Below, piece by piece: positions 3,474 through 31,313 of a stretch of DNA of 35,444 nt (positions are counted from its first letter, which is position 1; each line of letters starts with the position of its first letter). Both the position numbers and the translations under genes were made by a program. The stretch spans positions 1-35,444 of the forward strand of contig JYFJ02004032.1 of NCBI GenBank assembly GCA_000934665.2, read 5' to 3'. The notes under the pieces were generated by a model. That model searched no databases, had not been told where the DNA came from, and worked only from the letters and a program-made list of their open reading frames with translations. This DNA is from Catajapyx aquilonaris (lineage: Eukaryota).

Positions 3474-5333
3474 TTATCGATCATGTGCTGCTCTAACATG
3501 ATTTAAAAGGGTATCAGATCGAGTGAAGGTTTGCCTGCAATATTCACATTCAAATGGCTTTTCTCCAGTGTGCATTCTGAGGTGCCTCTTTAACTTGCTC
3601 TTTTCTCTAAAATTCCTCTGACACACTTCACAAATAAATGGTCTGTCACCAGTGTGAACCGTCATATGGTCTTCCAAACGACACTTATGCTTGAATACCT
3701 TGACACAGAACTGACAGCAGTGCCTTTCTTTTTGCCCTCTACGTTTTCGTTCACGCGCCGTCCTTCCATTTTGTTCTGACTGTGTGTCTTCATTTGTTCC
3801 AGTAATGTTATCAGTTGCATTAGTAGCACTATCACCAGTCTGAGTTTCTGTTCTCCTTCTCATACTCCTCCTCCTGGCGTTACTTCCAGCTTGGTCTTTT
3901 TCATGATCAGCAATGTGCTCATCAAATTCAGAAACTGTATGGAAAGTGTTGTTACATATTCCGCACTCAATGACATCTGGTAACATGCTGAAGTAGCTTT
4001 GCTAGAAAGAAAAAAAGAAACAAGGAAGTTATTATGTAAATATTGATGTATTACAAGAGGATCTATTACACATAAGTGGCCTGAAATTATTTCAGAAAGA
4101 GATGGTATTATTTTTGATCCAAATGACTATCTTTCTCCCTGCACCCATACATGGTGAAGCACTTGCACTATCTGCACCTAAAATGCCAGAATAATTTTTC
4201 ACTATCATATGCATTGTTTTTTGCAATTGCTTAGGATCCTAGATAAGTGTGTACGGAAACTATTGGCATTATAAAGCAGGTATGGATTAAAGATTCAAAA
4301 CCAGCATTTATCAGTGACAATGGTAATAACTAATTGGGAGGCCCCAGTACTATAATTCTCACCTCACTGCTTCCATCTTCACTATTACGTGTGATTGGAT
4401 AAGTTGAGCTTTCTTGACTGTTGCCAGGATCTTTCTGCAAGTCACAAGCAGATTCCATAGGCATCTGTGGAACTGGATGGATTTCATGTGAATCTTCCTC
4501 GTCCCATCCATCCTGCAGCTCATGCTTGGTAATTTCCATTAGCTGGTCAGGATTACTTTCTGCATCACCTGCTCTGTCCTCTTCTGGCTGTGGTATACTT
4601 CTCTCTCTTCCATGACTAGTTCCTGCACAAGTAAGTCATGCAATTCAAGAATTACAACTGAGAAAAACGTAATTGAAGTTAAGAATACTATTGTCAAGTA
4701 CAGCGCAAAACAATGCATGTCCAACCACTAATTTTCCAGGAGACACAGAGGCGCTCAGAGGAAGAACGGCACATCCCAACCGACCTCCAATTTTGAGTTT
4801 GTAGTGCTGTTGTACTCTCCTTCCATCTACCTTTCATGTGCTAAAGTACCAAATGAATTGGGACATGTCAAAGCTCACATACTCCACTTGTAAAATTTGT
4901 GCGTAGCTTTAGCTGCATGATAAAGAAAAACCCAAAAAGTCACTTTTCTCAAAACAAACTCTGGTTGGGATATGCCTCTATTCCTCTGATACCCTCAATT
5001 CCTTTATTAGTGAAGATGATTCTTCACAATTTGTTTAAAATCAACTTTTGTTACTGACAGAGCTTCACTACTGATTTCAACATTCTTTCATCAGATATAA
5101 CATCGATGATATTAAAATACAGCAGACTACCAGCCCTGTACTAGGCCCTCCCTCTCACCTGCCACTCCCCTGATCAAATCCTCGATGGCAACAATCCTCC
5201 TCTCCATCTGATCCATCCTCTCCAATATCCTCCTCTCCATCCTCTCCCCCTGGTCAAGGCTCCTCTCCAACAATCTCCTGTTCTCCAGCGCAACTTCCAT
5301 CAGCCTCTCGAAGACTCCACCCCCCGTCGCCAT
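3474..5333 (-). CDS. C2H2 zinc-finger protein A (~320 aa): shared N-terminal domain + acidic linker + 1 lone finger + 3 tandem fingers
   Basis: Exons 5333-5159 (G|GTGAGA, phase 1), 4622-4363 (GAG|GTGAGA, phase 0) and 4001-3474 total 963 nt, open. TGDRPF/TGEKPF linkers between fingers. Confidence 0.9.
4749..4995. mobile_element. MITE with ~33-bp imperfect TIRs in intron 1 of zinc-finger gene A
   Basis: aggcgctcagaggaagaacggcacatcccaacc vs ggttgggatatgcctctattcctctgataccct. Confidence 0.65.
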
Positions 5334-5777
5334 GCCTCTCCCTCCCTCCAGGTCCAGATCACGGAAGCTCACGTGCCACGGTCCACCAGTACGGCGACTA
5401 CGGCCTAGGAAGAAACCTGGAGCCAACAACTAACGATCTTCGGGCCGAACACCGCTTATTCTAAGACAGGTGAAAAACCTTTCTCAATCTGTGGCCACCT
5501 TCCGCCATGTTCGATTCAGGGTGCGTTCCAACCCGCACTGTTCCGACCCGTTCCGACCTGTGCAGATCGGGAAGTTATCCGGAGGGTGTCTCTGCAGTCG
5601 GCGATTGTGTCGCCCTCGCACGGATTGTGTTCGAACCTGCAACGACGCACATTGTTGTTTGGGTACTTTTCGCACTTTCGATTAATAATTGTCCAAGTGG
5701 AGCCTAGTTTTCTCCAGGTTTTTTTGACGACTTTGATTCCAGTGGTTCGCAGAGGAAAGGAGGAGCGTGGTGGAAGG
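5334..5777. promoter_or_regulatory. Bidirectional promoter region between head-to-head zinc-finger genes A and B
   Basis: The two divergent ATGs (5333 -, 5778 +) are separated by only 444 bp. The spacer is CpG-rich and has a YY1/Pho-like CCGCCATGTT at 5502-5511. Confidence 0.7.
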
Positions 5778-8122
5778 ATGCAGTCGATCGTGGGAGCGTT
5801 TGAGAGCGTGATGGAGGTGGCGGTGGAGAGCAGGAGGCTGCTGGAAAGAGGACTGGACAGAGGGGAGTGGATGGAGAAGAGGATCATGGACAGGATCGAG
5901 AAGATGGAGAGGACCATGGAGAGCAGGATGGACAGGGTGGAGCGGAGCATTGCTGCCATTGAGGAGTGGATCGGGGGGGTCAATGCTGCGGCCGCTGCAG
6001 AGGGAGTCCTCATCGCGGGGGGAGGGGAGGGAGAGGCCGGAGGAGGAGGAGGAGACACTGGCATGCAAACAGGTGAGACAGTTGCAGGCTCAGAGGTAGT
6101 TCAGAGCACGGGTTGAGCAGGACTGATGTTCGTATGCAAAGACTAGCAGGGGACGCATTCTAAGAAATCCATACACACTGTCCGTCCTCTCCGCTTACGT
6201 CGAGGGGTTAGTCACTTATGAAGTTCTTCGTACACTGAGGCTGAAGTCCAGGGGAAGTCTGGGCAAAGTTTGTAAAGTACAACTGAAGCGGACTGAGAAG
6301 TCCGTCGTACACTATAGTATACTATCCCTTGGCGTACATGATGGGAAATAGGTATGGAATGGCTACAGAATAGAAAAGAATAAGCACGGTATGGCTGCGG
6401 TGTGAGGTAGTCAACCCCAAACCACCAAACGGGTATCCAGAAATGCTGCAGACCAGAAAAAAATCAAAACTTTTGGTTTTTAGACTCGAAACAGTTCAGT
6501 TTTCAGACTTTTCCCTCAATCAGCGGCATGTAAGTCATCAGTGTGCCAAGTTTCAGGACTCTCAGTAGTCTGGAAGTGGGTTAGGTAGTCCGGACAAACA
6601 TACATACCAGCAAACTTTCCCACATAAAAACGGAGATATGTAAAATGCATACCAATTCTGAAATTCCTGCAGGAGGCATCGCTTTATGGACTGTTGGTGT
6701 TTAATAACTACTGTTGTTTTATAGGTCACTTAGATGAGGCTGTAGCTGCAGGTGAACTGCAGGAGATACACCCGACTGTGAAACTGGAGAGTTCTGAGTT
6801 GCAGCAGCAGATTGTCATATTGCAAGTAGCAGGTGGATCACCAGCACAGCACCAGATTTCGGAAGCTCAGGTTGAGGAAAATGCGATGGAGTCTCCATTG
6901 TTGCCGATAATCACAGAGGCTCATTCAGAACAAGATGCATTGGAAGAGTCTGTGCAGATGTCAGTGGGGCATGACATGGAGGAAACTTGGGTGCACGGAG
7001 ATGGTTCGGTCCTACAAGAAGCAGTTGGAGCAAGCCTTCTTCCAGATCTGGATTACTCAAACTCTGGCTGCAGTGTGGACATGGGTGAAACTCAGTTTAG
7101 TGGCACTATTGAGGCGGCACATTCTGAGGTGGGTTTTATTAATTTACAGTATTGGCCTAAAGTAAATTAAATCACTGCATGTGGGCCAGGAGCAACTGCT
7201 CCATCAACTCTCTTCTGACTTCTCTCATTGGACCATCAACTTGAGCAGATATACACCTAATATCAGCTCTTACAGCATGACTTTTTTCTCTTAAATGGAA
7301 ACGGCAAGTTCAAATATGATGGGAAACCAGCCTCTAAACTGTCTAAAGGTTGAACAGAGGGTAATCCTTTCTTATTGACAGCATGCCTTTTTTTCATGCA
7401 ATAATGGTGCAATCATTTTTATTATTGCGATTATATTTTGTACATTATTAATATGTAGTATCAACAGACTGTCATGTATGAGTTTTCTAATTAGCAAATT
7501 GTTCTAAGGAATGCATCTCTTAAATTTCCAGGACCTTTACCGTTGCGGAACCTGTGGCGCCACCTTTCACTACATCTTGGATCTAGAAGCGCATGCTCTT
7601 TCACATAAGAGAAGCCAAGTAGAAAGTGGGACAGCAGAGACTTTGATTGATAATATAATTCGACGGACAATGCACAATGAAGACAGTGACAGTAACATTC
7701 ACCAAGGCAGCAGCAGTAGTGTGTCTGAGAATAGCCAGGAGGGGATATTGGTTGAGGCAGTTGAGTGTGACATTTGCCATAAATACGTATCAAAGGCAGC
7801 TATATCATCGCATCGGAAGCGACATGGTGGCAAACAACACAGCTGTCCTGTTTGTAAGAAGGCTTTTACTCAGAAGACACACTTGCAGAGGCACTTGCGT
7901 GGACATTATGATGAACGCCCTTTTCAATGTTCATCTTGCCCTAGTTCATTCAAGCGTGCTGACCACCTGCAGAATCACATGCGGTTGCATACTGGGGAGA
8001 AACGGATAAACGAATGTGAAGTGTGCAAGAAGCGATTTCCTTCCAAGCGACAACTTGGACTACATAACCTGCAGCAGCATACATCGCTTGAAGAGGTTCC
8101 TTGCATTGTCATTGACAGTTGA
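5778..8122 (+). CDS. C2H2 zinc-finger protein B (~429 aa): shared N-terminal domain + acidic linker + 1 lone finger + 4 tandem fingers
   Basis: Exons 5778-6072 (G|GTGAGA, phase 1), 6725-7128 (GAG|GTGGGT, phase 0) and 7532-8122 (ttccag|GAC) total 1290 nt, open. AATAAA at 8646-8651. Confidence 0.9.
6530..6640 (+). mobile_element. Possible non-autonomous Helitron/Helentron-like remnant
   Basis: tgtgccaagtttca...ggaagtgggtta...acaaacatacatac...aaactttc resembles, from memory only, the 3' motif series of insect non-autonomous Helitron-type repeats. Confidence 0.35.
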
Positions 8123-11100
8123 AGCAAGAGCTCTGCAATGTGACCAGTGAATCTTCGAAGTTTCGTGAGTGTGGTGTACAATGGAGGGTGACAGGATGAT
8201 AGATTCAGTTATTGAGTAATGTTCTTAGGGAATATTTGTGTGTATTTTTGATATGTTGGGCTATTTATTCTATGTAATTATTGTACTCGCGAACTGGTGA
8301 CTCCAAAAGAGGTGTCTTTTTTTTGCGCGTGAAATGCAAGTGATCATAAGGTTTTGGATAATGGACAGACGTAATGAATTTCATAGGTTCACTTAGTACC
8401 TCATTACAAATATTTGCTGGTCATTCCATGAAAAAACATCTGACTTTAGTACCTTCTAGTGTTACGAATAGTAGGAAGCACTCAATTGAGTTGTGGTATG
8501 AGACCTTTTGCATTTCATAGGTCTTTGTGCATATGCATATAAATGAGTGGTTCAAACAGCCCTAGGTTTTGCAATGTGCTCACTTGAAGCAGCTGGGATC
8601 TGTACACTCAATACCCATGCAGATCTTTCACAGTCAACAACATGGAATAAAATAGTTAATTCTGTTTATGAATTAAAATTAAATGGTGCAAGAAAATGGG
8701 AGCCATAAAAATTGACCAGTTCCATCTTTGGTTTCAAGTAGATTTTAAATGGCCCACTGATCACCCATTTCTTATGCTAAGCGTAAGATCAATCAAATGA
8801 AAGTCGTCTCATCCAGCATCTCAATTGACAAATTTAAACCATGCCCTTGTCATAGCTTCATGAAACTAGAGGAACACACGTCAAAAACTTGGGGAGAGGA
8901 AAAAATATTTTTGGCAGAATGCTCAAGATCTCAAGACAAGTGCCTCACTTCTTTAAACATGCCTTTGCAAATATTATGAAAACAACAGTAAGCTTAAAAA
9001 GACCACTGGTGAATTTCAAAAGAGGATTCTGGTCATTGTAAATAGTTCATAAGCATCTTGAAAAAATATGCGATGTTTTCAAGTGTTCAGGGTGTAAGAG
9101 CTAAATGGTGTGATCAAAGGGTCTTTTTTTCTTTAAAATTTTTGTTCATTATGATTACGTTAAAGAGTGACTTAGAAACAGTAGGTGCGTATTGACATTT
9201 GGGAGGAAACGTTAGTTTTGGATGTTCTCAATGCTGGTTGTGAAAAGATGAACTGTCACCAAATCATGTCACACCCTGTAACATTTCACATGGCAATAGA
9301 TGATGCCTTATAAATTTTAAAAACGTACGTTTTCCAGTACATGCAAGGTACATGTTAACGTACTGTACCACTACTTTTTGCAATGCCTGGCTGGAATGAA
9401 CTGATGTGATCAGGGAGAATGATGATCGGATTTGCTGCATTTACCTGTCATTGCAGACGTTGGAAGCAAATGTGGGAGTCAGCTTCCTTATCGCAGATGC
9501 TCATCATGCACCCTGCTTCTCCAAACATCCATCCCTAACTCTGCGGCTGTTCCTACAATGTCCTTTCTTCTCCTGAATATAGGATAGAATTGCGCATGAT
9601 ACATCAATCCACAATGCATCACATTTCTGCCTGTGAATGTTTTTAAAAGCAATGATGATGTTACAAGTTCTGATGATGACTACCAATAACTTGTGCAGGA
9701 TATTTTAGTTTATAAATTGGATGCTTTCATCAGTGCGCAGTAGAAAAATCAGTGCAAACCAACGGTAAATGAGGCATTCACCATTTTCATCATTTCTTAA
9801 TTCTGAAGTTTCGACTGAAGTGCCTTACAAAGATGGGTACATGATAGTGCATTGGTACGGGACCAGAGCAACAGTTTGGAACTTACTATTGAAATTATCA
9901 GCTTATTGCAAACTCTTTCATAATTAAAGGTGACTATGTAATGCTCAAACTTTCACTACAATCCAGTAGATTCCAAATTCTCGAGTAGAAAATATGCATT
10001 TTGTCATGTTCTTGATCATTGTGCTACTGCAATCAGAGTTAATATTATTTTAGTGAAATGTCATTGTAATAGTGTAGATATCACGTGATCATAATTGGCC
10101 CCATATGTGTCTCTTGGAGATAATAGGTACTACGCCTGTTCTGCTTGTGGATTGGTTCCACAAAATGTACAGTGAAACGTATGCGCTGCAAGACATCTCT
10201 GTGAGAACTGTGAATATTTTCAGTAGTGAACACATTTCAGTTAAATTATTATTGGCTACTTGTGAGTTAGGAAAAATCATTTTAAGTCGCATTCCCTCCT
10301 ATGGCAGTGGCAATTAAACAATTTAATAGAGGGTGAGACTATTAATGTCACCTTTGTGAGGCTAACACAGGCTAACAGGTACGCTGCCGTACACATGTCT
10401 TCCACTCTCCAACTTTCTGGGAACTAACCATGAAATTTAATATTAAATCCATCCATCGACACAACTTGCAGATTAGTTCAGCTACAGCTGACATTAATAC
10501 AGTATCAATATTGCCATACCTGGGAATTTTCTTAATCATAGTGATTTACTGTTCATTTGCATTTTGGATCCCTTTACGAAAGAAAATCAAGGGGAATCTG
10601 AATTTTCTGCTGGGACCATGAATTTTCTGTGACATGTGACTCCAGTTGAAACAATTGCATGTATGTATGGATTGCGTGTTTTTTTCCCCATTTCCTGAGA
10701 GCCCCATAAGAGTTGTACTACTACAACACTGCTGAATATTTTGTAAGGATGTTTGTAGTGAATGAAGCCTGCACACCATGACAAAATAATGTAGATAACC
10801 TGAAGTGGGTGTTTGACTTGCAATTATTCAAATCAAGAGGGAATTGTTCATATATTTTAAATGAGTGTACTGTACCGGAGTGTACTTTGCCTTGTGAATA
10901 GAAAGAAAGGAAGTAAAAAAATACTGTCATAATTTTCCCCATCCTCTTTTTTTTGTCAACATGAATGTTTGGCACATGATAAAGAAATTTAAAATACGGT
11001 AATAAAAAGTTGGGTGACCTTGATTCCCATCAGGTGGCAGCCACCCGAACGCGACCAAAGAGAGAGCCAAGATGGCGTCTTGTTCCGATTGATTATTTTG

Positions 11101-11195
11101 AGTTCGAGCGTCTGTTCGATTCAGTTTGACTGGTTTTCCCTCTGAGGCTCTCTCTGGACCTTATATTCCAAGGGATTATTGTTGGGGAGGTAGCG

Positions 11196-13407
11196 ATGGA
11201 GTGGGGGATGAGGACGATGGAGAGGCTGATGCAGATGGTGGCGGAGAACAAGAAGCTGCTGGAGAGGAGCCTGGAGCAGGGGGAGAGGATGGAGAAGAGG
11301 ATCATGGGCAGGATGGACAGGATGGAAATCAGGATTGGAGCCATCGAGAGCTGCATTAGAGGAGGTCAGGGTTTACTCTTGGGGAAGAGACGAAAAGATG
11401 ACCACCATAAACGCATTGCATTGGTCTCTCATGTTCCTATACCGACTGCTTCTTTTTGGTTAATTATTGAAAGACCACCGGTTGGTGGGAGGTGTCAACT
11501 TGGACTTTTGATTGACACAGTGCAAAGACTAGCTTTCAGTAGAGTGAAAGTGCACTAATTTCAAATGTCTTTTCAGGCAACTTTCGTAGTGGAGATGCGG
11601 AAATAGAAAGGGGCCAGGAAGAAGGCGCAGGGAATCCTGGGCAGCTGGTGGAGGTTACGGTGAAAGAAGAGATAGAGGAATGGATACCCCCGGATGTTCC
11701 AGACTCGCAGGAACCTTTTGAGGATACCATGAATCAAGCACAGGATAATGAGGATGCTCATTATGGTTTTGAAACCTCAGCGGATCCTTCTGCAAATAAT
11801 GAAGCACATCCTGAGGTAATGTGCTGGATTAGTGGCCGTTTTGTTGAATTTATCTCGTCCTGAGGAATGATGCATGTTGTGCAGGTGCAATACATTTACT
11901 CGCATTATTTGCATGCATGCAAGGTTTTTGGTTAGTGTGAAGTGAGAAGCTAAATAAATATCTGGCCTGCAAGTTTTAGGGGTATACAGGGTGAAGGGAA
12001 ACTCGCGCCCAATTGCCAGGTAGACGAATAGTACTCGCAAAACTAATAATGTAGGGATGTGCAAGTAGTTTTGGGCCCCCATAGTTAATGCATACTGCGT
12101 CTTCCAAGTCTCATGAGTCCTCTCCACCAGTTTCAAAGAAGCAAAGGTCAGCTGGGGAGCCGCCGAATAATCCGGCTTTGGGTCCGTAACACATCGCCCG
12201 TGTGCAATAGGTGATCAAGTCTTGTCAGAGTAAGATTCCAGGTGCGACACTCGTGCACTTTGTTGTATGCATTAATTACGCAGGCTACCTGGTGATTGGG
12301 AGCGAAAATTCCTTCACCCTGTATACAGCTATAATATTAGTAATGAAGCATTATGCAATTGTATTAGAGTCAAGCAAAGAGAGCATATGTTCCCAGGTAG
12401 AATAAAAATATGGCATGTTATACAATGTATTGTTATATGTGAAGTGGATCAAGGACATGATGGGCATGATTGTGTTTCCAATGGGTGTGTTCTGGTGCAG
12501 TGTGATTAAAGCCAGAGGAATTTGTTAATCAATAGATTGTATGAAATGAAGTCTCAGGTTGTTTGAGTGGGGCTACAGGAGAGGAAATGCATTTACTCAA
12601 ATGAAATTATGACAGTCAATCCCAGAAACAAATGATTTCTAATATATCAAGGAGACATCAGTTACACGACAATGCACATGGCTTGGAAAATGAATACAAT
12701 TTAACTCAAAGTGACATTGCATTCTACTGTGCCAGATGTCACATCAATCACTGGTGTAAACTTAGACCCAAATTACATATTGCATGCCATGTATTATCCT
12801 ATTTGCCTGCAAGGAGCACAGTGGTACTGTAGTCTCATAATTACAGGACCTCTACTGCTGTGGGATCTGCAACAGCACTTTCCGTTACCCTTCTGACCTT
12901 GAGGTGCATGTCCTTGAACACTCCCAGCGACGCATTGCAGCAAGCTCATGCAGTCAGGTGGAACGATCATCAGTTAAAAATGCAACCCAGCCAAACACTG
13001 TTCAAGCCAAGCCACAGAAAAGTGTGCAAAACAAATCTGCTAACAGGTGTGGAGTTTGCCGTAAAACGTTCAACAGGCCATCTCTTCTTGAAGTGCATAT
13101 GCGTAAACACACTGGAGAGAAGCCCTTTTCATGCTATGTGTGTCAGAAGGGATTTACGCAGAGGGGTGCTCTTAGGAGACACATAAACATGCATACAGGT
13201 GAAAAGAGCTATCCATGCCATTTTTGCTCAAGGGTGTTTTTTCGACTGGACAGCTGGCAGAAACATATTTGGATGCATACAGGAGAAAACCGCTTTGAGT
13301 GCCGGGTGTGTGGAAAACATTTCTCCAGCCCAAGTAATTTACGTACACATATGAGGATTCATGAAAGAAATAACCCCTCACAAATGCATTTACCTGGCAG
13401 AACCTGA
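11196..13407 (+). CDS. C2H2 zinc-finger protein C (~322 aa): shared N-terminal domain + acidic linker + 1 lone finger + 4 tandem fingers
   Basis: Exons 11196-11364 (G|GTCAGG, phase 1), 11577-11815 (GAG|GTAATG, phase 0) and 12847-13407 (ttacag|GAC) total 969 nt, open. TGEKPF/TGEKSY/TGENRF linkers. YY1-like CAAGATGGCG at 11068-11077; AATAAA at 13438-13443. Confidence 0.9.
11987..12321. mobile_element. Tc1/mariner-type MITE (internally deleted copy) in intron 2 of zinc-finger gene C
   Basis: TA|CAGGGTGAAGGGAAA...TTCCTTCACCCTG|TA; homologous to 13994-14438. Confidence 0.85.
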
Positions 13408-13520: not shown

Positions 13521-13809
13521 ATTTTATTTTATTTTTTAAACTTACCCTGTGATAGGGTGGAGCCCTTTTAGGGTGGAAGGGGAGGTTCCAGAGGGAGGGC
13601 GCTGTAATTATAGTCATTTGTGACTTTCTGAAATACACCGGATCTTTTCTCCTGGCCCTGGGCAGAGTAGGGAGTGCAATTCTGACCGGCATGTCGGGTG
13701 AAAAGCGGGAAAACATCAGGCCAAGCAGAGGTGACGGGGTCAGGAATTGAACCCCGGCCTCCCACTTGGCTGGCCAGTGGCGTAACCACCAGACCACCAT
13801 GCCTCCCTT
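13521..13809 (-). mobile_element. tRNA-derived SINE, family 1, copy a
   Basis: On the - strand: A box TGGTCTGGTGG, B box GGTTCAATTCC and an A-rich tail. 13-bp TSD cact(t/a)agatgctt at 13508-13520 / 13810-13822. Homologous to 24547-24816. Confidence 0.88.
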
Positions 13810-13993
13810 CACTAAGATGCTTGAACCTAAGGGAGGCATTCTATGTGACATAATGTGTTTCAGTGATGCAAGTGCTGTCCATAATTTAAATGAGGAGCAG
13901 CTTTTGGTGGAGGGTGTGTATTCATTTTAATATTTGTAGAACAGTAGGATTTTTACCCGGAATTTTATGATTTGTGACTATGGTGCAGCTATG

Positions 13994-14438
13994 CAGGGTG
14001 AAGGGAAACTCGCGCCTAATCGCCAGGTAGACTGATAGTACTTGTAAAACTAATATAGGGATGTGCAAATAGTTTTGGGCACTGTTGTGTAGTTAATGCG
14101 AACGGTATACCGTCAAAGTTTTGTGACGCCACATCTGTTCCGCCTGCTTCAACGAAGCAAAAGCCAGCTCGAGGGCCTCCGAATAATCCGACCTTGGGTC
14201 TGCACACATCATCCATGTGCAATAGGTTATCAAATCCTGTCAGATTAAGAAACCAGGTGCGACACCTGTGCACTTTGGCGCTTTTACCTCATGTTTTACC
14301 ATCCAGCCCTCTACACTTTAAAGGTGCCGTACGCATTAACTACACAATGGTGCCCAAAACTAATTGCACATCCCTGTATTAGTTTTGCGAGTACTGTCAG
14401 TCTACCTGGCGATTGTCCGCAAGTTTCCCTTCACTCTG
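13994..14438. mobile_element. Tc1/mariner-type MITE (longer copy, ~110-bp TIRs)
   Basis: CAGGGTGAAGGGAAACTCGCG...caagtttcccttcactctg|TA. Same family and orientation as 11987-12321. Confidence 0.85.
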
Positions 14439-15014
14439 TATGAATAGTTTGACAGTATCAAAACTTTTCTTGTTCATATATACAGTATTTATATATGTAG
14501 TGTGGTGTGTAATAAATATTATCATTAAATATCATGAAGTTCTTTCCATATTAATAAAATTAAACTGCACAATATGGCTTTGGACTTCACCCAGGATGAC
14601 TTACAGATTGGGACACTGCTTGCTATGCAGTGTGTAGTAAATATTGAGGTCCTTTTAGTTATACCGCATTCACCTGAGGTTGTTATTTTGTGTAGTTTTT
14701 TGCACCTCGATAGATGTGTTCAGTTATATTCAACCACACTTGGGAATTGGGCACTTCACGCTGGGTGCAAAAAGCTACACAAAAATAACAACTTTGGTAG
14801 AAATTTGCAATCACTTACAGTTCCTGAATACTTGGAAGACAACTGTGCAGGCGTACTAGAATTAAAGACTTTATCTGCAAACAAAATCATCTTCATTATC
14901 TTCATTAACACTCTGCGTGGCCTGACCAGTCACTAGAGGTGTCATTATGTTGGTCTTAATGAAGTAGTCAGGTAATACCTGGACACCACTGGCTACCCCT
15001 CGATGAGTCTATGG

Positions 15015-15495: not shown

Positions 15496-18362
15496 TTATG
15501 TAACCAGCAGCTCTTCTCTCTTGCTATCAATGTAGAGCCATCTGAAATAATCGTAGGATCAGTTTCAGCTCATATCAGAATAATTCCTTTGCAAGATTGT
15601 CCGCAATAGATGTTAGATGACGAAGTGAAGCTCAGTTTTTGCCTACTTGGATCCCCAATTGAGATTGCAGGACTTGAACATTAACTTGCTCATGTCAGTA
15701 CTTCAAATTGCCAGAGCAGGAGTTAGGAACGTTTACAAAGCTCTGTTCAATTTTAATTTCAATTATAGAATATGTGAATATTTAGAGTTGCATTGTCCAG
15801 TAACATTGAAATAAATGGACATAATGTGCGTGTGAAAAGTTGGTGTTGCCCCATGTTAGGATTTCCATACTGTGCAAACAGGGTTTTCCAATCAATTATT
15901 TTGTGAAAAATTACTTTCAATGAACAATAAGTGACTCTACACTTTTCTAACAGTCAAGATGGCCCCAAAATGTACTTGTTGCAGCAAACTTACATGTAAA
16001 TGGACAATGGGATTGTGGAGATCCCACTGGACAGGAGGAATATGGCACCAGAGAAGGAGTCCAATGTGAGTCTGTAAAGTCCACTGTACACAGGAGTGGC
16101 CATCACAGGGGTCAAACTGTCCAGCACTCCAATGAAAGCATTCACTCTACCTGAAAATGGAAGCCTCCACATTAAATTTCCGCACCATGTCTACATTATA
16201 TGAACACTGACACATGAGTGTGGCTATGCTGATTAAAGGCCATGCACACTGGCCATGAATTTTTTTAATTCTTGAAATACCACATTGATTATGAAAGCTG
16301 CATACTCATAAAACGTGACTGTATTTTGTACTCCCAACATTTTCCTGCATTCTAGCACATAAATGGCACTTACCAATTTCTTCATTGGTTACCATCTTCG
16401 TTGGTATGGTTCTGCATATAAAGACAGTAGCTCCATTCAATATTCCAATCACCGGAGCTGATAATATGATTTTTTAACAATGTGAATACATCATTCTCAT
16501 TTAAAATGTAGTAGGATCAGGTCTTGCCAGGAAGGGTTGTATCTCTCACCTGAATACATCATCCAATCAGTAGAAACAAAATTGAGCATAATGTTGCTCA
16601 AAATTTCGCTTATGAAAGCGATTGCCCCCAAGGAAGTGTCTTTCATTTTCAACTTATGGCTCATCAAAAATAATGAAATAAAGCAACCTGAAAATAAGTG
16701 AGTCTCAATCACATTAATACACATTGCAAATCGGATCACAATTCCAGAAGGTGACCTTATTTACGTAGTGACAAGATCAACTGTACACCTCGTAAAGGGA
16801 GTGATTTCAGTTCATATCCCAACTCCAGTGAATTACCTTATCCCCAAGATTACTAAATGCATTTGATGGTATCTTTGCCTACGGCATGTTGAAATAAGGC
16901 TACTGCATTCATTACAACTATTGAACGGACATACCAGCCATCATAATTACTAGAGAAAATGTGGTGAAGAGACCAAAGTCGATTTCATTCCATCCAAGGC
17001 GCTTGCGAGTGAAGAGATACAAAACACTGCTTTCCCCTAGGAAAAAAAATTAAGAGTGGAAAATTAATTATAGTTGCATGTTGTGTCATGCTGCAAGTTC
17101 CCTCAACATTTCCAGTTATTAAAATGTACTATTAAAATCAACTTTACCTATGCCAGGCCAAAAGGCCAAGAATGCCACTACAAACAGAAGGTTAAGCTTG
17201 AGCCGCTTCTTGTCTTCACGCCTTTTAACTAATGTTTTCATAATGTCCGATACATTTTGGATGTCAAATACATCTAGGCAAATGTTCTTGGGTGAGGTTG
17301 GCTTAGTTTGGTCTAAGTCGTGTATGAAAATGAAGGTGTAGGCTATGGAGATAGATTCAGCGATAGCTGCCATGGTGAAGAGCCAAAAAAATCCCACGGA
17401 TCTGAAAGCATAAAGGGGAAGTAGAAATCATGGCGTAATAGTATGACATGTTTTAAATATAAGGGGCTCAGACCTGTAGATGGTTCCTCCAAGTGCATTT
17501 CCCAGAGAGATTCCGATGGGCAAGCACACGTTGAGGACACCTTGTCTAAGGGTCCTCCTGGACAAGGAAGTGAAGTCTATGACATAACTGTTGAGGGCCA
17601 TGTTGAGGGCAGTCTGTGATCCAGTCAGCGAGACTGGAATATAAGCTGCCAAGACCATGGTCTGAGCATCCCATGACTCCATTTTTGAGCTGAGGGCCAG
17701 TGCCACAAACTTGAGGAGAAATCCAAGAAGAGGCAGGAGGATACACACTTTTCGGCCATGACGATCAGACCATGACCCCATGAACAGGACAAATGCTATC
17801 GGTATGGTATTCTCCACAGCTGACTTCCATACCCCAATTTCAGACACAACCTGTGGTAGAAGGTAGCATTCATACATTTAGTCAAGAACTTTACTTGTAA
17901 TGAACAGTTTCGTATGGTGAACCTTTTAAGAAATCCATACACTGTAGTTATATTATGGTCTTGATATACAAATTTTTGGCTTGCCTTTTGTACGTCAGTT
18001 TCCACTTGGCTCATATTATGACTTCTGTGCTCTGACAAGAGCTCGTTGCATGTTTCCTCAGAATAGTTGAGATTGACTTTGCAAGCTTTGTACAGAAGAA
18101 GATTTTGGACTATGAGTTCTGAGGCCATGTTCCAAAACATGTGGAATAGTAGCATGTACTCAGTTCTTAGTGTAAAAAGGACTAGCTTAATTTTGGCAAG
18201 TAATGGCATCTGATCAAATGAATTCATGGAGCAAGTCTCCTTGTTGTCTCCTGCATTATGCACGATGCTGGTTGACTCTTGTGCACAATCTTCTGTGTCA
18301 TTGTTTGATGTCTCAGTGCCGTTCTGGTACCCAGCTACGGAATCATGACTTGCATCTCCCAT
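15496..18362 (-). CDS. SLC46 / proton-coupled folate transporter-like MFS transporter (~511 aa)
   Basis: Exons 18362-17985, 17850-17474, 17401-17148, 17036-16935, 16687-16550, 16457-16374, 16150-15994 and 15541-15496 total 1536 nt with all phases compatible. Family-typical motifs: QNLLLYKAC...C, GSWSDRHGRK (MFS motif A), GESSVLYLFTRKRLGW, EEIGRVNA. Multiple hydrophobic helices. Confidence 0.9.
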
Positions 18363-19984
18363 TTTTTCTAATAATGTTATCTTGTAATACTGGTCTCTGC
18401 AACAAGAACGCGTATCCTTCCGTAAATATTCATACAGAGCATCATCCTATGACTATCCCATAACACATATGGTATAGTATGGCTAATTATTGTGATTTCT
18501 CCTGCCCTTTCATTCTTGGCTATTGTCATTGAGGCTTGCAAAAGGCTACAATATATTAAGGTCAGATGTTTCAATCATAATTGCCACAGAGTGGTCAATA
18601 ATTTGGCGCAGAGCCTTTACACAGAGTGGTTTAATAATTACTCAAAGAAATTGACAGGTGGAACTTTTAATTTCTGGCACATTCTATTGAAAGTTTGAAA
18701 CCATACCAGTTACGGGTAGTTTCAGTTGCAGTGATATTAAAAATTACTTCAGAATAATCGAACTAGCATTAATGGTTTTTTTTAGATGCATTGCAATACC
18801 ATATAGAGTTACAGGCGATTTCATGACTTCATTAGTTCATCTTGATTTTACAATTGTGTGCAAATAACTTGATAGTAATGTTAAGTAATTATTCATGCAT
18901 ATCAATGCCGGGATAGGTAATGAAATGGTAAGTGCAGTCCCTTAGATTACAGTGGGAATCCATGCAGGTATAAAGGTGCTTTTGAAGGGTATGCCGGAAA
19001 AATGTGTCACCTCGAAGAAGAAAAAAGAGAAGATAAGGGTGGACGTGGGTGGAATCGATGGGCGAAAAAAAAGTTGGGCGAAAAAAAAGTTGGGAGCAAA
19101 TCGAAAGTTTCACCTTCCAGTAATGACCACTTCAAGAAAAAATGAGTGCAATAAAGACAAGTCTACATTGAGAGATCCAGCATTACATATATACGGTACT
19201 AATGAACTTACGGGCTCTAACCCACCTTTTTTCTTGAGCAGTCACCACCCTTGACCTCCTCGTCTCCAGATTATTTTCTAACCCCTTCCTTTCCTTCAGC
19301 ATGGCCAAGTCCACAGTGCCACACTTCTCATTGCGTATTTGTCCTTCATGTTCGCGGGGAATTCCCTCTGCACTGAGCACAGAAAATATGAAAAGTAAGC
19401 TTGGAAACAACCACGGTTTCGGATTGGTTTTGCACGAAAGGTGTATACCAGTTTCTCACCTGCTGGCACCAAGTGATCTAATCTTCTAAACATCTTCTAA
19501 AGCAGGTGTTGGTGATTTAAAAAAATTACACTTACGATAGAGTGCTATGCGGAGAGATATTGACGGTCTATTCCACAGACGGCACCCCACATACCACCAC
19601 ATACCTAATGAACTAGATATGCGTCATGCTATAACAGGTGTGCATGTTTCTATATCAGGCCCTTCACCACAGTGCTATAGGCAAACTCGAGGGAAACTAC
19701 TTCAGAGCATTTTGATAAAATCTTTGAGAGGAGCTGATGAGATAAGACTGGGTAAGATGACCTTGATGGCTTAAAGCATAAATTTGCATAAAACGCAGCT
19801 AATTAGGCACTAATTAGCCAGTGATATGTTTAGACCAGTAAAAACGATGCCAAATCCGAATTTAGTTTACTGATTTCGAAATTATTGTTCTAATTGATTT
19901 CGGTGATTTTGGCTCCAATACTGTATATCGATTATAGCATGCTTAACATTCGTGAGTCATCAATGCAATGAACAGCATGATATA

Positions 19985-23523: not shown

Positions 23524-23673
23524 CCCTATAACCAACCCTATAACATACGATTTTTAACTTACAACATACCTACAATCAGTTTAATATGCAAATTATATGC
23601 ATTAAGACATCAATAAAAGTAATTAACAATAAAATAGGATACTTATTATAACAATACTGTATTGTAAAAAATA

Positions 23674-23866
23674 CAGGGTGACCCAACTCTATGGCACCAA
23701 CAGTTATTGGAAAAATCGCGCAAGCTGCTTGTTTATAAGCAGGTCGTTGCTAAGAGATACTTCTAGAGTATCGGGAATAGCACCTCTTAGCAACGACCTG
23801 CTTATAAACGAGCAGCTTGCGCGATTTTTCCAATAACTGTTGGTGCCATAGAGTTGGGTCACCCTG
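23674..23866. mobile_element. Young Tc1/mariner-type foldback MITE
   Basis: 83-bp inverted arms (23674-23756 / 23784-23866) with one mismatch, CAGGGTG termini and TA on both sides. Confidence 0.92.
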
Positions 23867-24245
23867 TATTTTGGTTATTTTGGTTTAATGATATTACTTA
23901 GCATTTTCAACCATGGATAAAATTTAAACCACAGATAACCAGGGTCTCACTGTGTAGGCCATGTGTAAAAAATAATGAATCCCAAATCTCATGAAAAAAC
24001 ACAACGGTGTTTATTATACTGACACTTGAAAAGTAAAAACTTGAGATCCGCATAAACTGAAGGTACAGTAAATCCAATGTTACGCTAAAAGTATATAAGA
24101 CAAATAACGTCGTAAAAGCACCAAAATCTACCACGTAGAACAGGGCCCCTTTTGCTGTACATCTCCACATTACAAAGCACCCATATCACGCACAGCATCT
24201 TGTCCTGGAGCTCTCTCCTATTCTTCCCTATGTTAAGTGGCAGGT

Positions 24246-27200
24246 TCAATATTTCTGCTTCTTATGCCCTGATGAGTCTAGGTCGTTGTCGTTGGTCCGA
24301 CCATCTCCTGCTCCCCTCTTTGCCGCTGTCTTTGTTGAGGTTGGAGACTGTTGCTTCAGGACTTCTACATCGGTGAATACCACCTGTGCTCCACCACAAC
24401 TAGTAGGGAGAATATCAGCCTGAAGAAATAAGTCAAATGAGTGTGGAGAATGACATTTAATTTTTGAGTCAAAACTAAATTTTGTTGCTGATGTGACATG
24501 CTCAATAAGCCTGGAAGCACCTGGAAGGGTCATCCTAGCAATATTTCTTTGTTTGTTTTAATACCCTGTTATGGGGGGGGGGAGAGGTTCCCAAGGGAGG
24601 GTGCTCTTAAATAGTTTCTAGTCATTTCAGACACTCTTAAATATCAAACCTTTTCTCTTGGTCCTGGGCAGAGAAGGGAGTGCAATTCTGCCCGGACATG
24701 TCAGGTGAAAGCGGAAAAATACACGACCAAGCAGACGTGACAGGGACAGGATATGAACCCCGGACCTCCTGCTTGGCTGGCCAGTAGCATAGCCACTAGA
24801 CCACCATGCCCCCCTGCATCCTAGCAATATTTGGTAAACATTATGGTTATTCCATACACAGATGTACTTCAGTTCAAAATTTATATCCCTCTCCCCTGGA
24901 ACCATGGACTTTGAAATCTGTTCTACTAGGTCATTCCTTGGTAGTCCCTCCATAGTACAACTGCCTCACCTTGTACAGCATCGTCTCCATATCACCTTGC
25001 TCATCTGTTGACTGTGTTGTAAGGCAGTACATGGCAGTGTTAGGATTTACTACATCCTCTTTGCCCACCATTCCTGTGACAGATTTGCCCTTTTTCATCT
25101 GTGGCTGGAAAATTGTGTTCAAGGCGACAGGTGTGCAAGGGCGATGGTCTATCCACCTTTCACGACAAGCTGAGCGAGAGCGTCGGTGACGATTATTAGA
25201 CAGTGGACGATTCTAGGAGCAAAGAAGATATTATAATTGTTAATATAGGCAAGGGTTAAAACATTTCCATAACAGATCATTTCATGATCTACAGTAGGGT
25301 GGCATGGCAATTGCTGGTGAAGGCAAAACCTTCAACCTGTGAGTCACAAAAAATATAGTACCAACATTGGGCAATGAATTTTCACACGTGGAACCAGTTG
25401 TGAAGGAGTTTTAAAAGATGACTTTTGTACTATATCGCTCAAAAAGATGGAGACGTTTTTGTGTTGACACCAAATGCAAAACAAGTTCTTCGCAGCATGG
25501 AACTAAATACACTGGATATAGGCCCTTACTTCGACCTTACGTCATCGTTTCTTACATTGTTCTTTTTTGTTGACACTGATTACTCATATTGTTGTGTGAG
25601 GGCATTTCCATGGAAAACTTTAAAACAAAACTATGACGTAAGGTTGAAGCAGGGTCACCTACATGAGTGCCTCCCCCACCTAGACAGGGTATTGTCTCTC
25701 CGCCATATTGGAGCTAATTCACATAGGAGCTACATGCAGTTAAAAAAAAAACAATTGAAAAAAACAAAAACGAATCGCTTGCCAATTCCCTATCCTGCAG
25801 CGTGGGGCGGCCATATTGGAGCTAGATTGCATAAGGACTACGTGAAGACAATACCCTGGTTAGGGTGGGGGAGGCAACCATGTAGGGGACCCTGGGTTGA
25901 AGTAAGGGTGAGCCGCCTATACAGTGAAACCAGGCTATAGCTGACCCCAGATATGGTGAAACGCTGCCTACTGTGGAATATTTTTAGTTTTGACAGCAAG
26001 ATAAGATTTACTATGGACTGACTGATTATTGTAGGGCAATGACCAAGGAAGAAAGGCGATTGCAACCGGCATGTTGTGTTCGTAAGGCATGAATTGTTAC
26101 CCCACAAAATCCACTTGGACTTGTTTGGTTGCCTTTTCCAAACGACGCATGTATTAAGAATTGGGCACCAGAAAGACGTTTTTTTTTTTTTTTTAATACC
26201 CCATGCTAGAGCCATAGGCTCTCTTAGGGGAGTGGATTACCACTATCGTGCAGGGACAGGGTAGGGATAGGAGGGGGGGACACTGGTGCATGTGCAATGT
26301 CATCAAGTTGGGGGTCGTGTGCAGTCCCTCAGGGGGCCCGTTCGCCAAGATGGGGCCCGTTCGCCAAGATGGCCCCCTAGATGCGAGTCAGAAACTCCCA
26401 CTGACCCGCACCTCCTCCAGGACAGGGAAAGGAAGGAAGCGGCTGTGGCGTATTTTACAGTACGATCCCGGAAAAGTTTCCTGGGGCGACCTTGGGAAAC
26501 CACAGAAAACCAAGGTCAGGATCGCCAGCCTCCGGGATTCGAACCCAGGACCTCTCGATTAGCAGTCGGACACCATATCCACTCCACCACTACTGCTTCG
26601 GTGCACCAGAAAGACTTGTAACATGGCCCAAATGATGGGACTCTGACCCACCAATTATGGAACATGACAATGCACCTTAAATTATGTTTCCTAATGTTGT
26701 CTAATGCCGAGGACTTTGCCCATAATTTAGCAATATCATTATACAACATACTGGTTTCAATATGCACTATCAAAATCAGATCATATCATTAGAATGCAAT
26801 AACTAGGTAATGTAACTAACCAAGTTCAGGGACAAAGTTAAAAACAGATGATCACTGTTGCTGCTCGATTGTTGCCCCTTGGGAGAAAATAATTGAGTTC
26901 TAAAAGGTACCACTTTAAATATACCCCACTAACAAGTAAGAACAATTAAGGCACTAGTACCACTTCCAAGGACAAGACTCACAATAAGAGTTGCAGAAGT
27001 TGCAGCAGGCCTTTCTCCAGTGGGTGGACTGGCCTCGCTTGAACCTTGATCACTGTCAGCCATGCCTGTGGTAGAAACTGGCAGATGGACAGACTGAGAG
27101 CGTCTGCGCCTCCTAAGAGAACTTCTCACTTCAACAAGTGCTGTGTTCTGCGAAGTAGGAATTCAGTGATATATTTTGAAATATCATGGACATGCAAGTG

Positions 27201-30200
27201 ATACAATTGATACAATTTTGTTGGTTTTCAGTACTTTATACCACTAACAATAAGTTCCATTCCCCCNNCCCCCCCCCCCCCCCCCCCCTTGATCACATTA
27301 TGAAATCCATTTAGTCCTCAAAATTAATGAGCCTGCTAGCCAGGATTTACTACATATTACTACATATTTACTACATTACACAGTGTAAGAGGTTCTAAAT
27401 GACAAATCCCTTTTCAAAATTAGTGTGAATCTCTGAGTTTGCAGGGCTGTGGTGCAACCACACCTCAGCTTATATTCTTGCAACCCTGATCACGAAGATA
27501 AAAGATGAGGTCATTGTTCGACTGCCTATTATTGCTCCAGTTGATCGTAGCACAATAAGTCCTACTGACAGTGAGTGCACTTATTTTAACAAGCTTCACA
27601 CTCAACTGACTGGGTGCACTGAACCCAATTCAGCCAAATTCCCTTGTTATTAATAATTACTAGTTAATTTTTATCAATAATTAATAACAGTAGCAATCTT
27701 CTTGTATTTGCTTTACTGAGTTCCGTGATTCTCGCCCTCAGAAAATATAATTTACCGACATAAAGGTGCATTTACATGTGAGCGATTTGACGAGCAGAGA
27801 AGAGCGAAATCTTTGCCGAGGGTGAGTACCCCAAGTAACCAATATTGTTTGAGGTGAAAATCGATTATTAATTTCAGCCTCAGCAAAGATTTCGCTCGTC
27901 AAATCGCTCACATGTAAACACACCTTTATTCTGCCAGCCTCACACATGCTCAAGAGTTTAAAATGCTCATCATTTGAAGTTCTGACTAATGTCCGACTAC
28001 CTTCTGCTTACATACCCCCTGCCCCTGGTCTCAGAAAGCCTACATCATGCACCTGATGAGGAAGGAGCAGGAATGAGAGACTACTATTTCTGAAGTTCTG
28101 AAGGTCTGCTGTGAATTATGTTCCCAAATTTAAAAAAAAATCCAGACACTCTCCCAGAGTGTACACGTTCATGTATAAGTTCTAATTTTGAAAGATTAAT
28201 TTAATAAATTACTGTACTTACCAAACCATGCTCGGAAGTGGAAGGCAGTGGCCCAGAGAAGTTGCTCGTAGAATCACCCTGGGAACCATTGCTGACGATC
28301 TTCTTCACAGCTGACAGCTTTTGATCGTTGGATATTATATGGCTCTGCAGTAAAAAAAAAGGGAGCAAATTTCAGAATGCAGTGAATCACTTGTTTCACT
28401 AGGCTTATTAAGCTATAAGGCAAAAAGGCACGAGTTTCTGACCAACTTTCCATGAATATTTTAATGCACTTCTAAACACCTTCGATAATAATGCAACTAA
28501 CAACTGAATGTCAGTGCTATCAAGCTCCACCTCCGGCTGAAGCAGTGACAGGCTACTCTCAAGAGGCATTCAACTACTGACATTAGTTCCATGAGACTCA
28601 CCTCTCAATTAACCCAGTATTAGAATACGGAATGGCCCAATAAGGTACTATCAGTCCACCAAGAATTGTCGTAGCGTCAGCACACGAACTACAGTCTACG
28701 AGCACTTCTCCATTGACTTCTGCCCCCGGAAGTGCTCGTAACTGTAGTTCGTGCGCTGCCGCTGCGACAATTCTTGGTGGACTGATAGTACACTGCTTAC
28801 AGAAATTATTGTTTATTAATGGCTGCTCTCCAGTAAGCACTGACGATTACACTGCAATAATTTGTTACATTTACAAAATCTTAAAATGTTTGTTTAGCAT
28901 TCATTATTGCCCTGAGAGAAATGTGGACAGTTACATTACTAACTACACCAGGGCTACTCAACTGGTTGACCAAGGTCCAGATCCAGACACTGAGACAAGC
29001 TGCATACATGTCCACATAATAAAGGCATGAGCTACAAATTAATGAGCACAATGCCTACAACATTTAATTTCATTCTAAAATCTGCTGTAATTCAAAGGAT
29101 TTCCTGGTAACTTCTGCATCACAATAAGAGAGGGCTATCCACATGGGATCTAGAAGCACATGGAATTAATGGCTGTAGGATAGGTCTGTATCTGGTGGGA
29201 AGGAAAGTTAGGTCATGGGTTATGTTGGTACAGCGTACCCCCAGCCCTCCCAAATTCGGTCAGACAAAATGAAAGTCTTTCCGAATTAATTTCCTGAGTT
29301 CAGAACATAATTCAATGCCACATGGGGTCTTACTTTCGTCCTTCCCTCAATCCCAGCCAACTTATCATAGCACTGTCTCATTCAGTTGGGTGTTTTACAA
29401 AGTGCACAGTTTCCCCTGGTGTTGTGTGCTCCATGCCATACGCTTAGTGTGACGCGTAGAAAAATAAGTTATTGTAGAAAGCACTGATTGCCAGTTGGAC
29501 AAGTGCAGTCATGTCTAATAACGGCAAAAGAAGAAACATGGATGCCAAGAACAGATCATTTCATGCTGAACACAGGACATCCGGACCATCCGGGTTGAAC
29601 CCAAAGTGCTTATTGTGCCAAGAGACTATTTCTGTGATCATGAGCAGAAATTTGAAGCAACATTTCATGACTAACAATGCCACTGATTTCAAGTCTTGAG
29701 TTTCCACCTGGAATGAAGTGACTCTCAAAGCAAAAAACAGTCACATCTCTGAAGGCTCCCCACACCACCACAACCACCATTGGAGGGGGGATAACTTCAC
29801 TGAAAGGAGAACATGTACACTTGACTTCGGCACAAATTAGTCGAGTAGCCCTGCACTACACTGCACCATAATAAGCTAATATTCCTACATTCATTTCAAT
29901 CAAAACTTCCTTTTTCCCTCTTCTCGATTCATGACCTACCTCAAACTCCATTCTCTGTTGTATCATCTTTTTACTGAGGACGCCCTTCATTTTCTCCCTG
30001 TCATCATGGATCTTATTTATCAGCTTTTGCTCTTTCGCATTCGCCTCGTGTTTCAGCCTCTGTTTCTCTGACTCTAGCTCCCTCAGTTGTTCCTGGAGTG
30101 TCTTGATTGTTGCTTCACTGTTCTCTTGGAGTCTAGTCAACTGGGCATCCTTGGCTGCAAGATTCTTCTCCAAAGACCGTGCTGTGTTCCTCTCCCTTTC

Positions 30201-31262
30201 CCCTACCACAGACAAAGTTTTGCACTCCTCACGAAGAAGGATCAACTCCTCCTCCATTTTCACTAGGCGAATGCGGAATGCTTGTTCTAGAGGATCCAGA
30301 ACATTGGTTAGTAGTCTTGTTTTAGTGACATGAAGAGAATTTAGGGAACTTTTAAGGCCCACATTTGGGATCATTGTATGTCACAGTCTAGGGTGCTCCA
30401 TGGATTCATAACCCAAGCACTAAAACTTGCGCCTTTGTCTTACTATATTAAATTCATGAATCCAAATTACAACTAACAAGACTTCCATATCCCCTTACCA
30501 CGCCTGATCTGCTGCTGCTTCAGACATTCCCTAGTTTCCTTCCGACGCTGAAGAAACTTTTCCAAATCCATAAGTTTGTGGGCCTCTTCAGGCTCTTTGA
30601 TATTGAAGGATGGGAACTCAGGTCCCAAGCTGCAATAGGTCAAATCCATTAACAATACAATCTGAGATTTTAGATCTTCAACCCTACCTATATGCTGGCA
30701 TGTGTTCAAGAGGGATGCGACCATTTCCATTGTAGACTTCTGCCTGATCCAGGTTCCTCACTGTAGCCAAAAGTTCAGCATAAGGTCTCTGGGGTGTGAT
30801 CTCAGGACGAGCAACCTGTACCTCCTGTGACATCTCAGAAAACCGCATAACTTGCTGAAGGAGAGAAGTGAAAAATCATTATGTTCCCATCACAACTGTG
30901 CACAAAACAAGCAACTTTTTAGCAGAGAATTCAAGTTCGCTATTTTAAAACGTCTGAAAGAATACCATACGTTTGAGATATACAGCATTTACTTCATTTA
31001 CTAATAGACTATCGGGCAACACGGTGGCGGAGTGGTTAGCGCCACAGCCTTCCACCTCTAAGATCCCGAGTTCGATCCCCGGGTCGCGCAGAGGATACTT
31101 ATGTGGATCGAGTTTCTATGGGTTCTCTCCGTGTTCGCGTGGGTTTTCTCGGGGTTCTCCCGTTTCCTCCCGCAATCAAAATCCATCACACGCAGGAAAT
31201 GATTACAGTCGGTTCACGAAAAGAAGATCCCCTAAGAGGCCCAAGGCCTATCATGGGGTATC

Positions 31263-31313
<51 letters not shown>

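Follow-up and report, generated by a model that had tools for sequence, protein, structure and literature searches.

What is the short N-terminal peptide that three neighboring zinc-finger genes of Catajapyx aquilonaris encode on an exon of its own? Accessory domains (KRAB, SCAN, ZAD, FiNZ) are lineage-specific and decide the roles of expanding zinc-finger families; to our knowledge, very few such domains have been described beyond vertebrates and insects. The window analyzed here, the whole 35,444-nt contig JYFJ02004032.1, contains three paralogous C2H2 genes (A, B and C) at positions 3474-13407, each composed of three exons and modeled from stop-to-stop open reading frames (ORFs), the raw sequence and canonical splice signals. 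The peptide encoded by exon 1 is a real, constrained protein segment and the most conserved part of A, B and C. It is predicted to form one long amphipathic helix, which we read, with a probability of roughly 0.5, as a coiled-coil module for self-association. The three genes, with protein lengths in amino acids (aa), are as follows.

Gene A: exons 5333-5159, 4622-4363 and 4001-3474, minus strand, 320 aa
Gene B: exons 5778-6072, 6725-7128 and 7532-8122, plus strand, 429 aa
Gene C: exons 11196-11364, 11577-11815 and 12847-13407, plus strand, 322 aa

Conservation and predicted structure of the exon-1 peptide

A tblastn search of the window with the exon-1 peptides returns three loci only, at cross E-values between 1.9e-9 and 2.1e-17, and a degenerate DNA pattern of the conserved exon-1 block occurs at 3 sites in the window versus 0 in 100 shuffles. 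A fourth copy or relic was not found within the 35-kb window by tblastn with the whole spliced proteins. The exon-1 alignment contains 25 invariant columns out of 57. Amino acid identity among the paralogs reaches 50-62% in the exon-1 helix, compared with 18-28% in the exon-2 linker (23-36% in a separate linker alignment) and 33-38% in the finger exon. Nei-Gojobori estimates, made region by region, give a nonsynonymous divergence (dN) of 0.22-0.31 for the helix, 0.83-1.20 for the linker and 0.67-0.76 for exon 3. The ratio of dN to synonymous divergence (dS) is 0.22-0.57 for the helix; synonymous sites of the linker and of exon 3 are saturated. Exon 1 is thus under stronger constraint than the linker, a point on which the original prediction, made from the letters of this DNA alone, had staked itself in advance.

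Nucleotide similarity of 72-76% begins 10-16 nt before the ATG and ends at the exon-1 donor, with introns and flanks unalignable. The apparent dS is lower in exon 1 (0.55-1.0), and gene conversion was considered as its cause and rejected on two grounds. The G+C content at third codon positions is biased, at 0.79-0.89 in exon 1 versus 0.33-0.48 elsewhere, and identical residues other than Met and Trp share the same codon at compositional expectation (16/30, 22/30 and 17/23 observed versus 18.5, 19.6 and 14.8 expected from regional codon usage). Because the same-codon counts match the codon-usage expectation, the exon-1 synonymous sites are saturated, with no need for gene conversion. This saturation in turn indicates that the duplicates are old and that selection on the protein, not recency of duplication, has preserved the exon-1 peptide.

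AlphaFold2 predicts one helix for the exon-1 peptide of A, spanning residues 3-55 with a predicted local distance difference test score (pLDDT) of 92.9, and one helix for that of B, spanning residues 2-74 and running through an 11-residue insertion, with pLDDT above 90 to about residue 70. The hydrophobic period of the exon-1 helix peaks at 3.5-3.6 residues, so that a predicted continuous helix coincides with a hydrophobic period near 3.5, a combination typical of coiled coils. Each helix core contains 8-12 Glu, with Arg/Lys about as frequent as Glu/Asp, giving a net charge of -3 to +2.

The helix follows a common plan, in which a leading segment and a Gly-Glu pair precede 11-residue units bearing R-h-x-x-h-E motifs, two in A and C and three in B. 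These units make up the C-terminal half of the helix and are visible in the DNA of C, where Tandem Repeats Finder detects a 33-nt period with 1.9 copies. The sole indel of the helix alignment measures exactly 11 residues, present in B, and corresponds to one more 33-nt unit of this internal repeat; the 11 additional residues that the original prediction had marked in B are therefore genuine. Since 11 residues span about three helical turns, the indel would roughly keep the hydrophobic seam in phase.

R-h-x-x-h-E-type motifs occur twice per copy, at residues 39 and 46 (7 apart) in A and C and at residues 39 and 50 in B. Their chance level is low (mean of 0.16-0.20 in shuffles, P about 0.01-0.016), and their residues belong to invariant alignment columns. 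The strict motif is Arg(g)-h(a)-x-x-h(d)-Glu(e), with L, I or V as h(d). According to PMC3653964, such motifs act as determinants of parallel, three-stranded coiled coils and also occur in some dimers.

Gene models, linkers and fingers

Gene A lies on the minus strand and B and C on the plus strand, placing A and B head to head. The three paralogs, their single architecture, the exon layout and the exon-1 peptides quoted in the original prediction are all present where it had placed them. All six introns carry GT-AG ends and a pyrimidine tract, and the claimed phases hold in 3/3 genes, with intron 1 in phase 1 and intron 2 in phase 0. The exons and the spacer between A and B are listed below, with ZF1 denoting the first finger and X1 the public run from which contigs were drawn.

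A exon 1: 5159-5333, minus strand; ATG at 5333, 58 codons + 1 base, donor CAG|GTGAGA; helix core F8-G56 at 5166-5312
A exon 2: 4363-4622, minus strand; acidic linker, 86 aa, net charge -15; 3' end 4363 matches an X1 contig joint
A exon 3: 3474-4001, minus strand; ZF1 3903-3965, basic spacer, three-finger cluster 3483-3716, stop codon; 5' end 4001 matches an X1 contig joint
A-B spacer: 5334-5777, no strand; 444 bp between divergent start codons, G+C about 0.53
B exon 1: 5778-6072, plus strand; helix core 5799-5978 including the extra 11-residue unit, then a disordered Gly/Ala-rich tail
B exon 2: 6725-7128, plus strand; acidic linker, 134 aa, net charge -24; donor 7128 matches an X1 contig joint
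B exon 3: 7532-8122, plus strand; ZF1 7544-7606, spacer, one irregular finger, three-finger cluster 7844-8080, stop codon; acceptor 7532 matches an X1 contig joint
C exon 1: 11196-11364, plus strand; helix core 11217-11363; 33-nt tandem unit (1.9 copies) at 11263-11326
C exon 2: 11577-11815, plus strand; acidic linker, 79 aa, net charge -18
C exon 3: 12847-13407, plus strand; ZF1 12859-12921, spacer, four-finger cluster 13048-13362, stop codon

Splice support comes from the contigs of one public run, X1, whose kind is not on record and which contains 36% of the sampled words. X1 was the only run found to carry this DNA, with no RNA run listed. These contigs join 4001 to 4363 in A and 7128 to 7532 in B, exactly at the predicted intron-2 boundaries, covering 2/6 junctions. 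Exons 1 and 2 of C and most of exon 2 of B have no X1 contig cover, which makes cover uninformative there. One contig spans 5697-5947, comprising 5' untranslated region (UTR) and exon 1 of B; cover from 5697 places the start of the B transcript at least 81 nt upstream of the ATG. The 444-bp spacer between A and B is presumed to act as a shared bidirectional promoter.

The exon-2 linkers are acidic and barely alignable, and exon 2 of A, B and C matches no Pfam family, in keeping with the poorly conserved acidic linker originally described (net charges of -15, -24 and -18, with the dN range given above). The exon-3 ORFs score 51.0, 62.0 and 95.6 bits against zf-C2H2 (PF00096), above the cut-off of 25.2, which places them in the C2H2 family. 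A regular-expression search (C-x2-C-x12-H-x3-5-H) counts 4, 4 and 5 fingers per exon 3. The fingers share one plan, composed of an isolated ZF1, a spacer of about 55-90 residues and a cluster of 3-4 fingers. Among the clustered fingers, one aligned finger has nearly the same contact residues in A, B and C, and another differs.

ZF1, the finger that opens exon 3, is conserved, and the finger alignment reveals an acidic recognition helix in 3/3 proteins, suggesting that this finger may serve protein contacts instead of DNA binding. According to PMC12774644, single CGx-Phi C2H2 fingers of Diptera, which are set apart, can mediate dimerization; ZF1 is likewise isolated from the DNA-binding cluster. 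The same source describes the CGx-Phi motif as lying upstream of the finger on an extra β-strand at the protein N-terminus and reports it only in Diptera (PMC12774644). ZF1, however, follows the linker, and its C-G-x-C is a plain zinc knuckle unlike CGx-Phi. Assignment of ZF1 as a CGx-Phi dimerizing finger was rejected on motif position and taxon.

Proposed self-association and the competing readings

The proposal of self-association builds on results established directly here, namely the gene models, the exon-1 constraint, a predicted helix with an amphipathic period, and searches that matched no family. The helix, about 50 residues long (about 60 in B), would most likely form a parallel coiled coil through which A, B and C self-associate into dimers or trimers, possibly of mixed composition. 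The short finger arrays of the two or three partners could then bind DNA jointly, and the module would do the same job as ZAD, SCAN and BTB in other zinc-finger families. Our best reading places the role of the helix closer to ZAD or SCAN than to KRAB, with the acidic linker as a better candidate for an effector region than the helix itself. The original prediction had suggested a dimerization or co-repressor module; the predicted single long amphipathic helix fits an oligomerizing role, and the co-repressor half is weighed below.

The presence of two R-h-x-x-h-E motifs in each copy hints at a trimer. The trimers in question are coronin-1, cc-beta and engineered cortexillin-1, and the two motifs per helix of A and C, lying in consecutive heptads, resemble the two complemented R-IxxIE motifs of the same source (PMC3653964). 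No homology is implied by this likeness. The helix segment with the motifs is also the one that gives weak matches to HSBP1 and the coiled coil of TRPP2.

Several points weigh against self-association. The dN/dS of the helix in the B-C pair (0.57) indicates only moderate constraint. The X1 contig joints confirm intron-2 junctions only, with no exon 1-exon 2 junction among them, and the AlphaFold2 alignments consisted of three sequences only. The strict motif definition applies to one motif per copy, the other having Met at d. An amphipathic helix of period 3.5-3.6 could also equally dock onto another protein.

Searches for a known family were negative. Exon 1 has no Pfam family above cut-off, and no match was obtained to KRAB (PF01352), SCAN (PF02023) or BTB (PF00651), either with the exon-1 and exon-2 ORFs at E<=1 or with trimmed exon-1 peptides at E<=10. 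The exon-1 peptides have no match to ZAD (PF07776, zf-AD) at E<=10, and in place of its four conserved Cys the three helices contain 0, 0 and 1. The Pfam searches thus agree with the original description of a domain lacking the ZAD cysteines and any likeness to KRAB, SCAN or BTB. A profile search of the PDB with exon 1 yields seven sequences at E<=10, the best at 0.12, all of them short coiled-coil segments, for example from AF-10 and TRPP2. Foldseek of the single-helix model against the PDB gives 0 matches at E<=10, which is uninformative for a lone helix, and the ESM Atlas returns only unnamed short bacterial clusters (score 0.91, recognition below the tool's guide value). Identity with an already named domain, which would have undone the claim of novelty, finds no confident match in Pfam or in the PDB by sequence or fold.

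Among known accessory domains, the nearest in function is ZAD and the nearest concept in the literature is FiNZ. PMC7913770 and PMC12649048 document ZAD as an N-terminal module in C2H2 proteins with a role in homodimerization. ZAD, found in arthropod C2H2 proteins, resembles the present helix in standing upstream of a C2H2 cluster and in the role proposed here, but is a zinc-binding fold built on its four Cys, unlike the single predicted helix. FiNZ, according to PMC10547256, is a 28-aa module of about 700 zebrafish genes with long finger arrays and is linked to transposon repression. Like the present helix, this cyprinid element is a lineage-restricted, Glu-rich N-terminal sequence that resembles no known domain and occupies a separate exon 5' of the fingers (PMC10547256). 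By description only, the present module differs in its 50-60 aa, its three genes, its short arrays and its extra linker exon. The KRAB and SCAN genes of vertebrates are alike in layout, with the accessory domain on a 5' exon, the fingers in one 3' exon and an arrangement in clusters, but show no sequence match with the helix. SCAN folds as a bundle of several helices and KRAB serves as a docking site for co-repressors, in contrast to the one long helix predicted here.

The helix may instead be private to one small, old gene cluster, perhaps having arisen when a GA-rich 33-nt unit expanded at the 5' end of one ancestral gene, with no lineage-wide domain like KRAB, ZAD or FiNZ behind it; we consider this quite possible, if short of probable. 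The internal 33-nt repeat structure and the presence of three copies only in the 35-kb window are consistent with such an origin. Searched against 1.84 billion proteins, the three-peptide profile has one match at E<=0.001 and retrieves no zinc-finger protein. The match, P0001, is a non-zinc-finger protein of 176 aa (E 2.9e-4, four repeats matched, best single stretch 15.9 bits), composed of four tandem 18-residue repeats whose core is close to the last helix unit of gene B. It represents a generic bacterial-type coiled coil, matching 70 Pfam coiled-coil families at E<=10. P0001 was rejected as a homologue and is read as sequence convergence among coiled coils.

Other searches were also negative. 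A word-indexed search of longer proteins with exon 1 of A produced 30 candidates, none at E<=0.01. In metagenome contigs, 598 pattern matches included none that were confirmed, and a further degenerate DNA pattern had 0 matches. Exon 3 of C yielded 308 matches from 352 candidates in the protein collection, and the 120 listed are generic zinc-finger proteins of at most 50% identity; the exon-1 helix is absent from all 120 of these relatives among the matches listed. The lineage-specific expansion of a clustered family, as envisaged in the original prediction, gains no support, with the three-peptide profile finding only these three copies across the 1.84 billion proteins, two metagenome scans and the rest of the window.

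These negatives have limited reach, which tempers the case for a private origin. Copies were sought in the window, the protein library and metagenome contigs, not in the source genome or its close relatives. A 57-position profile needs about 40 bits for significance in the 1.84-billion library, so that diverged copies would be missed. The neighboring kinesin is at most 41% identical to library proteins, and the libraries therefore seem poor in this lineage, making missing homologues weak evidence of absence. Retention of the helix in three genes through synonymous saturation shows that it is useful, which makes further copies plausible.

A different function for the same helix would be that of an effector or docking module that recruits a cofactor such as a co-repressor, in the manner of KRAB with TRIM28 and as proposed for FiNZ, in line with the earlier idea of a KRAB analogue. 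As in the KRAB and FiNZ genes described in PMC10547256, the N-terminal module has a separate exon that precedes the finger exon, and the helix is Glu-rich, a composition noted there for both (PMC10547256). It is also amphipathic, and a helix of this kind can dock on a partner. We nevertheless find this function unlikely: KRAB similarity is absent at E<=10, the charge of the helix is balanced while strong acidity sits in the exon-2 linker, and the heptad/hendecad regularity together with R-h-x-x-h-E are coiled-coil features.

A bolder form of the self-association proposal holds that the helix is an undescribed zinc-finger-associated domain of a little-sampled invertebrate lineage, a parallel trimerizing coiled coil that would assemble short-array C2H2 factors into homo- and heterotrimers and mark a larger clustered family in the source genome. 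This form is doubtful on present evidence. Literature searches by keyword found no description of a coiled-coil accessory domain in invertebrate C2H2 clusters, which is weak evidence given the keyword scope. If true, a plain coiled-coil domain would reveal one more independent way of making zinc-finger factors oligomeric, all the more so if it is trimeric, and a trimerizing helix would be a third structural answer to this problem, next to the zinc-binding fold of ZAD and the helical bundle of SCAN. It would also help to annotate genes of this kind in an animal group that has been little sampled. With three genes in hand, the helix may equally be private to one small paralog cluster, which would be ordinary.

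We judge it very unlikely that A, B and C constitute a transposon-targeting, fast-diversifying zinc-finger system of the KZNF or FiNZ type, a role to which the original prediction had extended the module. The paralogs are clustered, the DNA-contact residues differ in one aligned finger, and apparent dispersed repeats lie beside and inside the genes. However, each protein contains only 4-5 fingers, and five tandem fingers are the survey minimum given in PMC10547256. Synonymous sites are saturated and introns no longer align, which marks the paralogs as old, and one aligned finger has nearly the same contact residues in 3/3 proteins. Screening against Pfam of 42/52 window ORFs of at least 95 aa identified no transposon protein family; the other 10 are alternative-frame ORFs, nine of which overlap screened ORFs. 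Short arrays, old paralogs and this screen together disfavor transposon targeting, and A, B and C resemble ordinary transcription-factor paralogs and not zinc-finger genes caught in an arms race.

That the helix is a remote relative of the HSBP1 coiled coil (heat shock factor binding protein 1) and was acquired as a 5' exon is barely credible: PF06825 is the best or near-best Pfam match of 3/3 peptides (profile positions 19-48), but at 17.9, 12.2 and 17.1 bits, all under the 28.6-bit gathering cut-off, with the unrelated bacterial coiled coil P0001 scoring equally (20.2 bits) and no HSBP1 chain appearing in the PDB profile search at E<=10.

Surroundings in the window

The AT-rich interval between B and C (8303-10878) lies almost continuously under X1 contigs, including a 1396-nt contig at 9483-10878, and contains no ORF matching a protein family. 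This cover may stem from a non-coding transcript, from unspliced background or from B itself, as a long 3' UTR. Two segments, 4468-5201 and 13643-14000, have an X1 contig depth of 12-29 versus 1-4 on exons. Loose contig ends occur at 4748/4754 and 13807/13808, with three variant letters at 4840-4882; the pattern looks like that of dispersed repeats, one within intron 1 of A and the other just downstream of C.

Two close inverted repeats are present, one at 13991-14441 (115-nt arms, 88%, 221-nt gap) and the other at 23668-23872 (94-nt arms, 97%, 17-nt gap); both are hairpin-forming or resemble miniature inverted-repeat transposable elements. A search against Rfam returned no match in the window. 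At 1629-1911, two copies of a 153-bp direct repeat (82%) lie in a 246-aa open frame without a Pfam match, forming a repeated Pro/Leu/Ala-rich unit.

Exons of a major-facilitator-superfamily transporter (MFS_1, E 2.7e-11) occupy 17122-18446 on the minus strand, between the zinc-finger cluster and a kinesin gene. The latter, at 24249-34152 on the minus strand, comprises KIF23/MKLP1-like kinesin-6 exons encoding kinesin motor pieces and the Arf6-interacting domain, and gastropods and insects are about equal among its best library matches, a pattern that fits a protostome-like source without pointing to arthropods in particular. Two N bases at 27267-27268 represent a small assembly gap. The ORF at 30958-31563 contains a long trinucleotide microsatellite at about 31.3 kb, which reads as poly-Ile in one frame.

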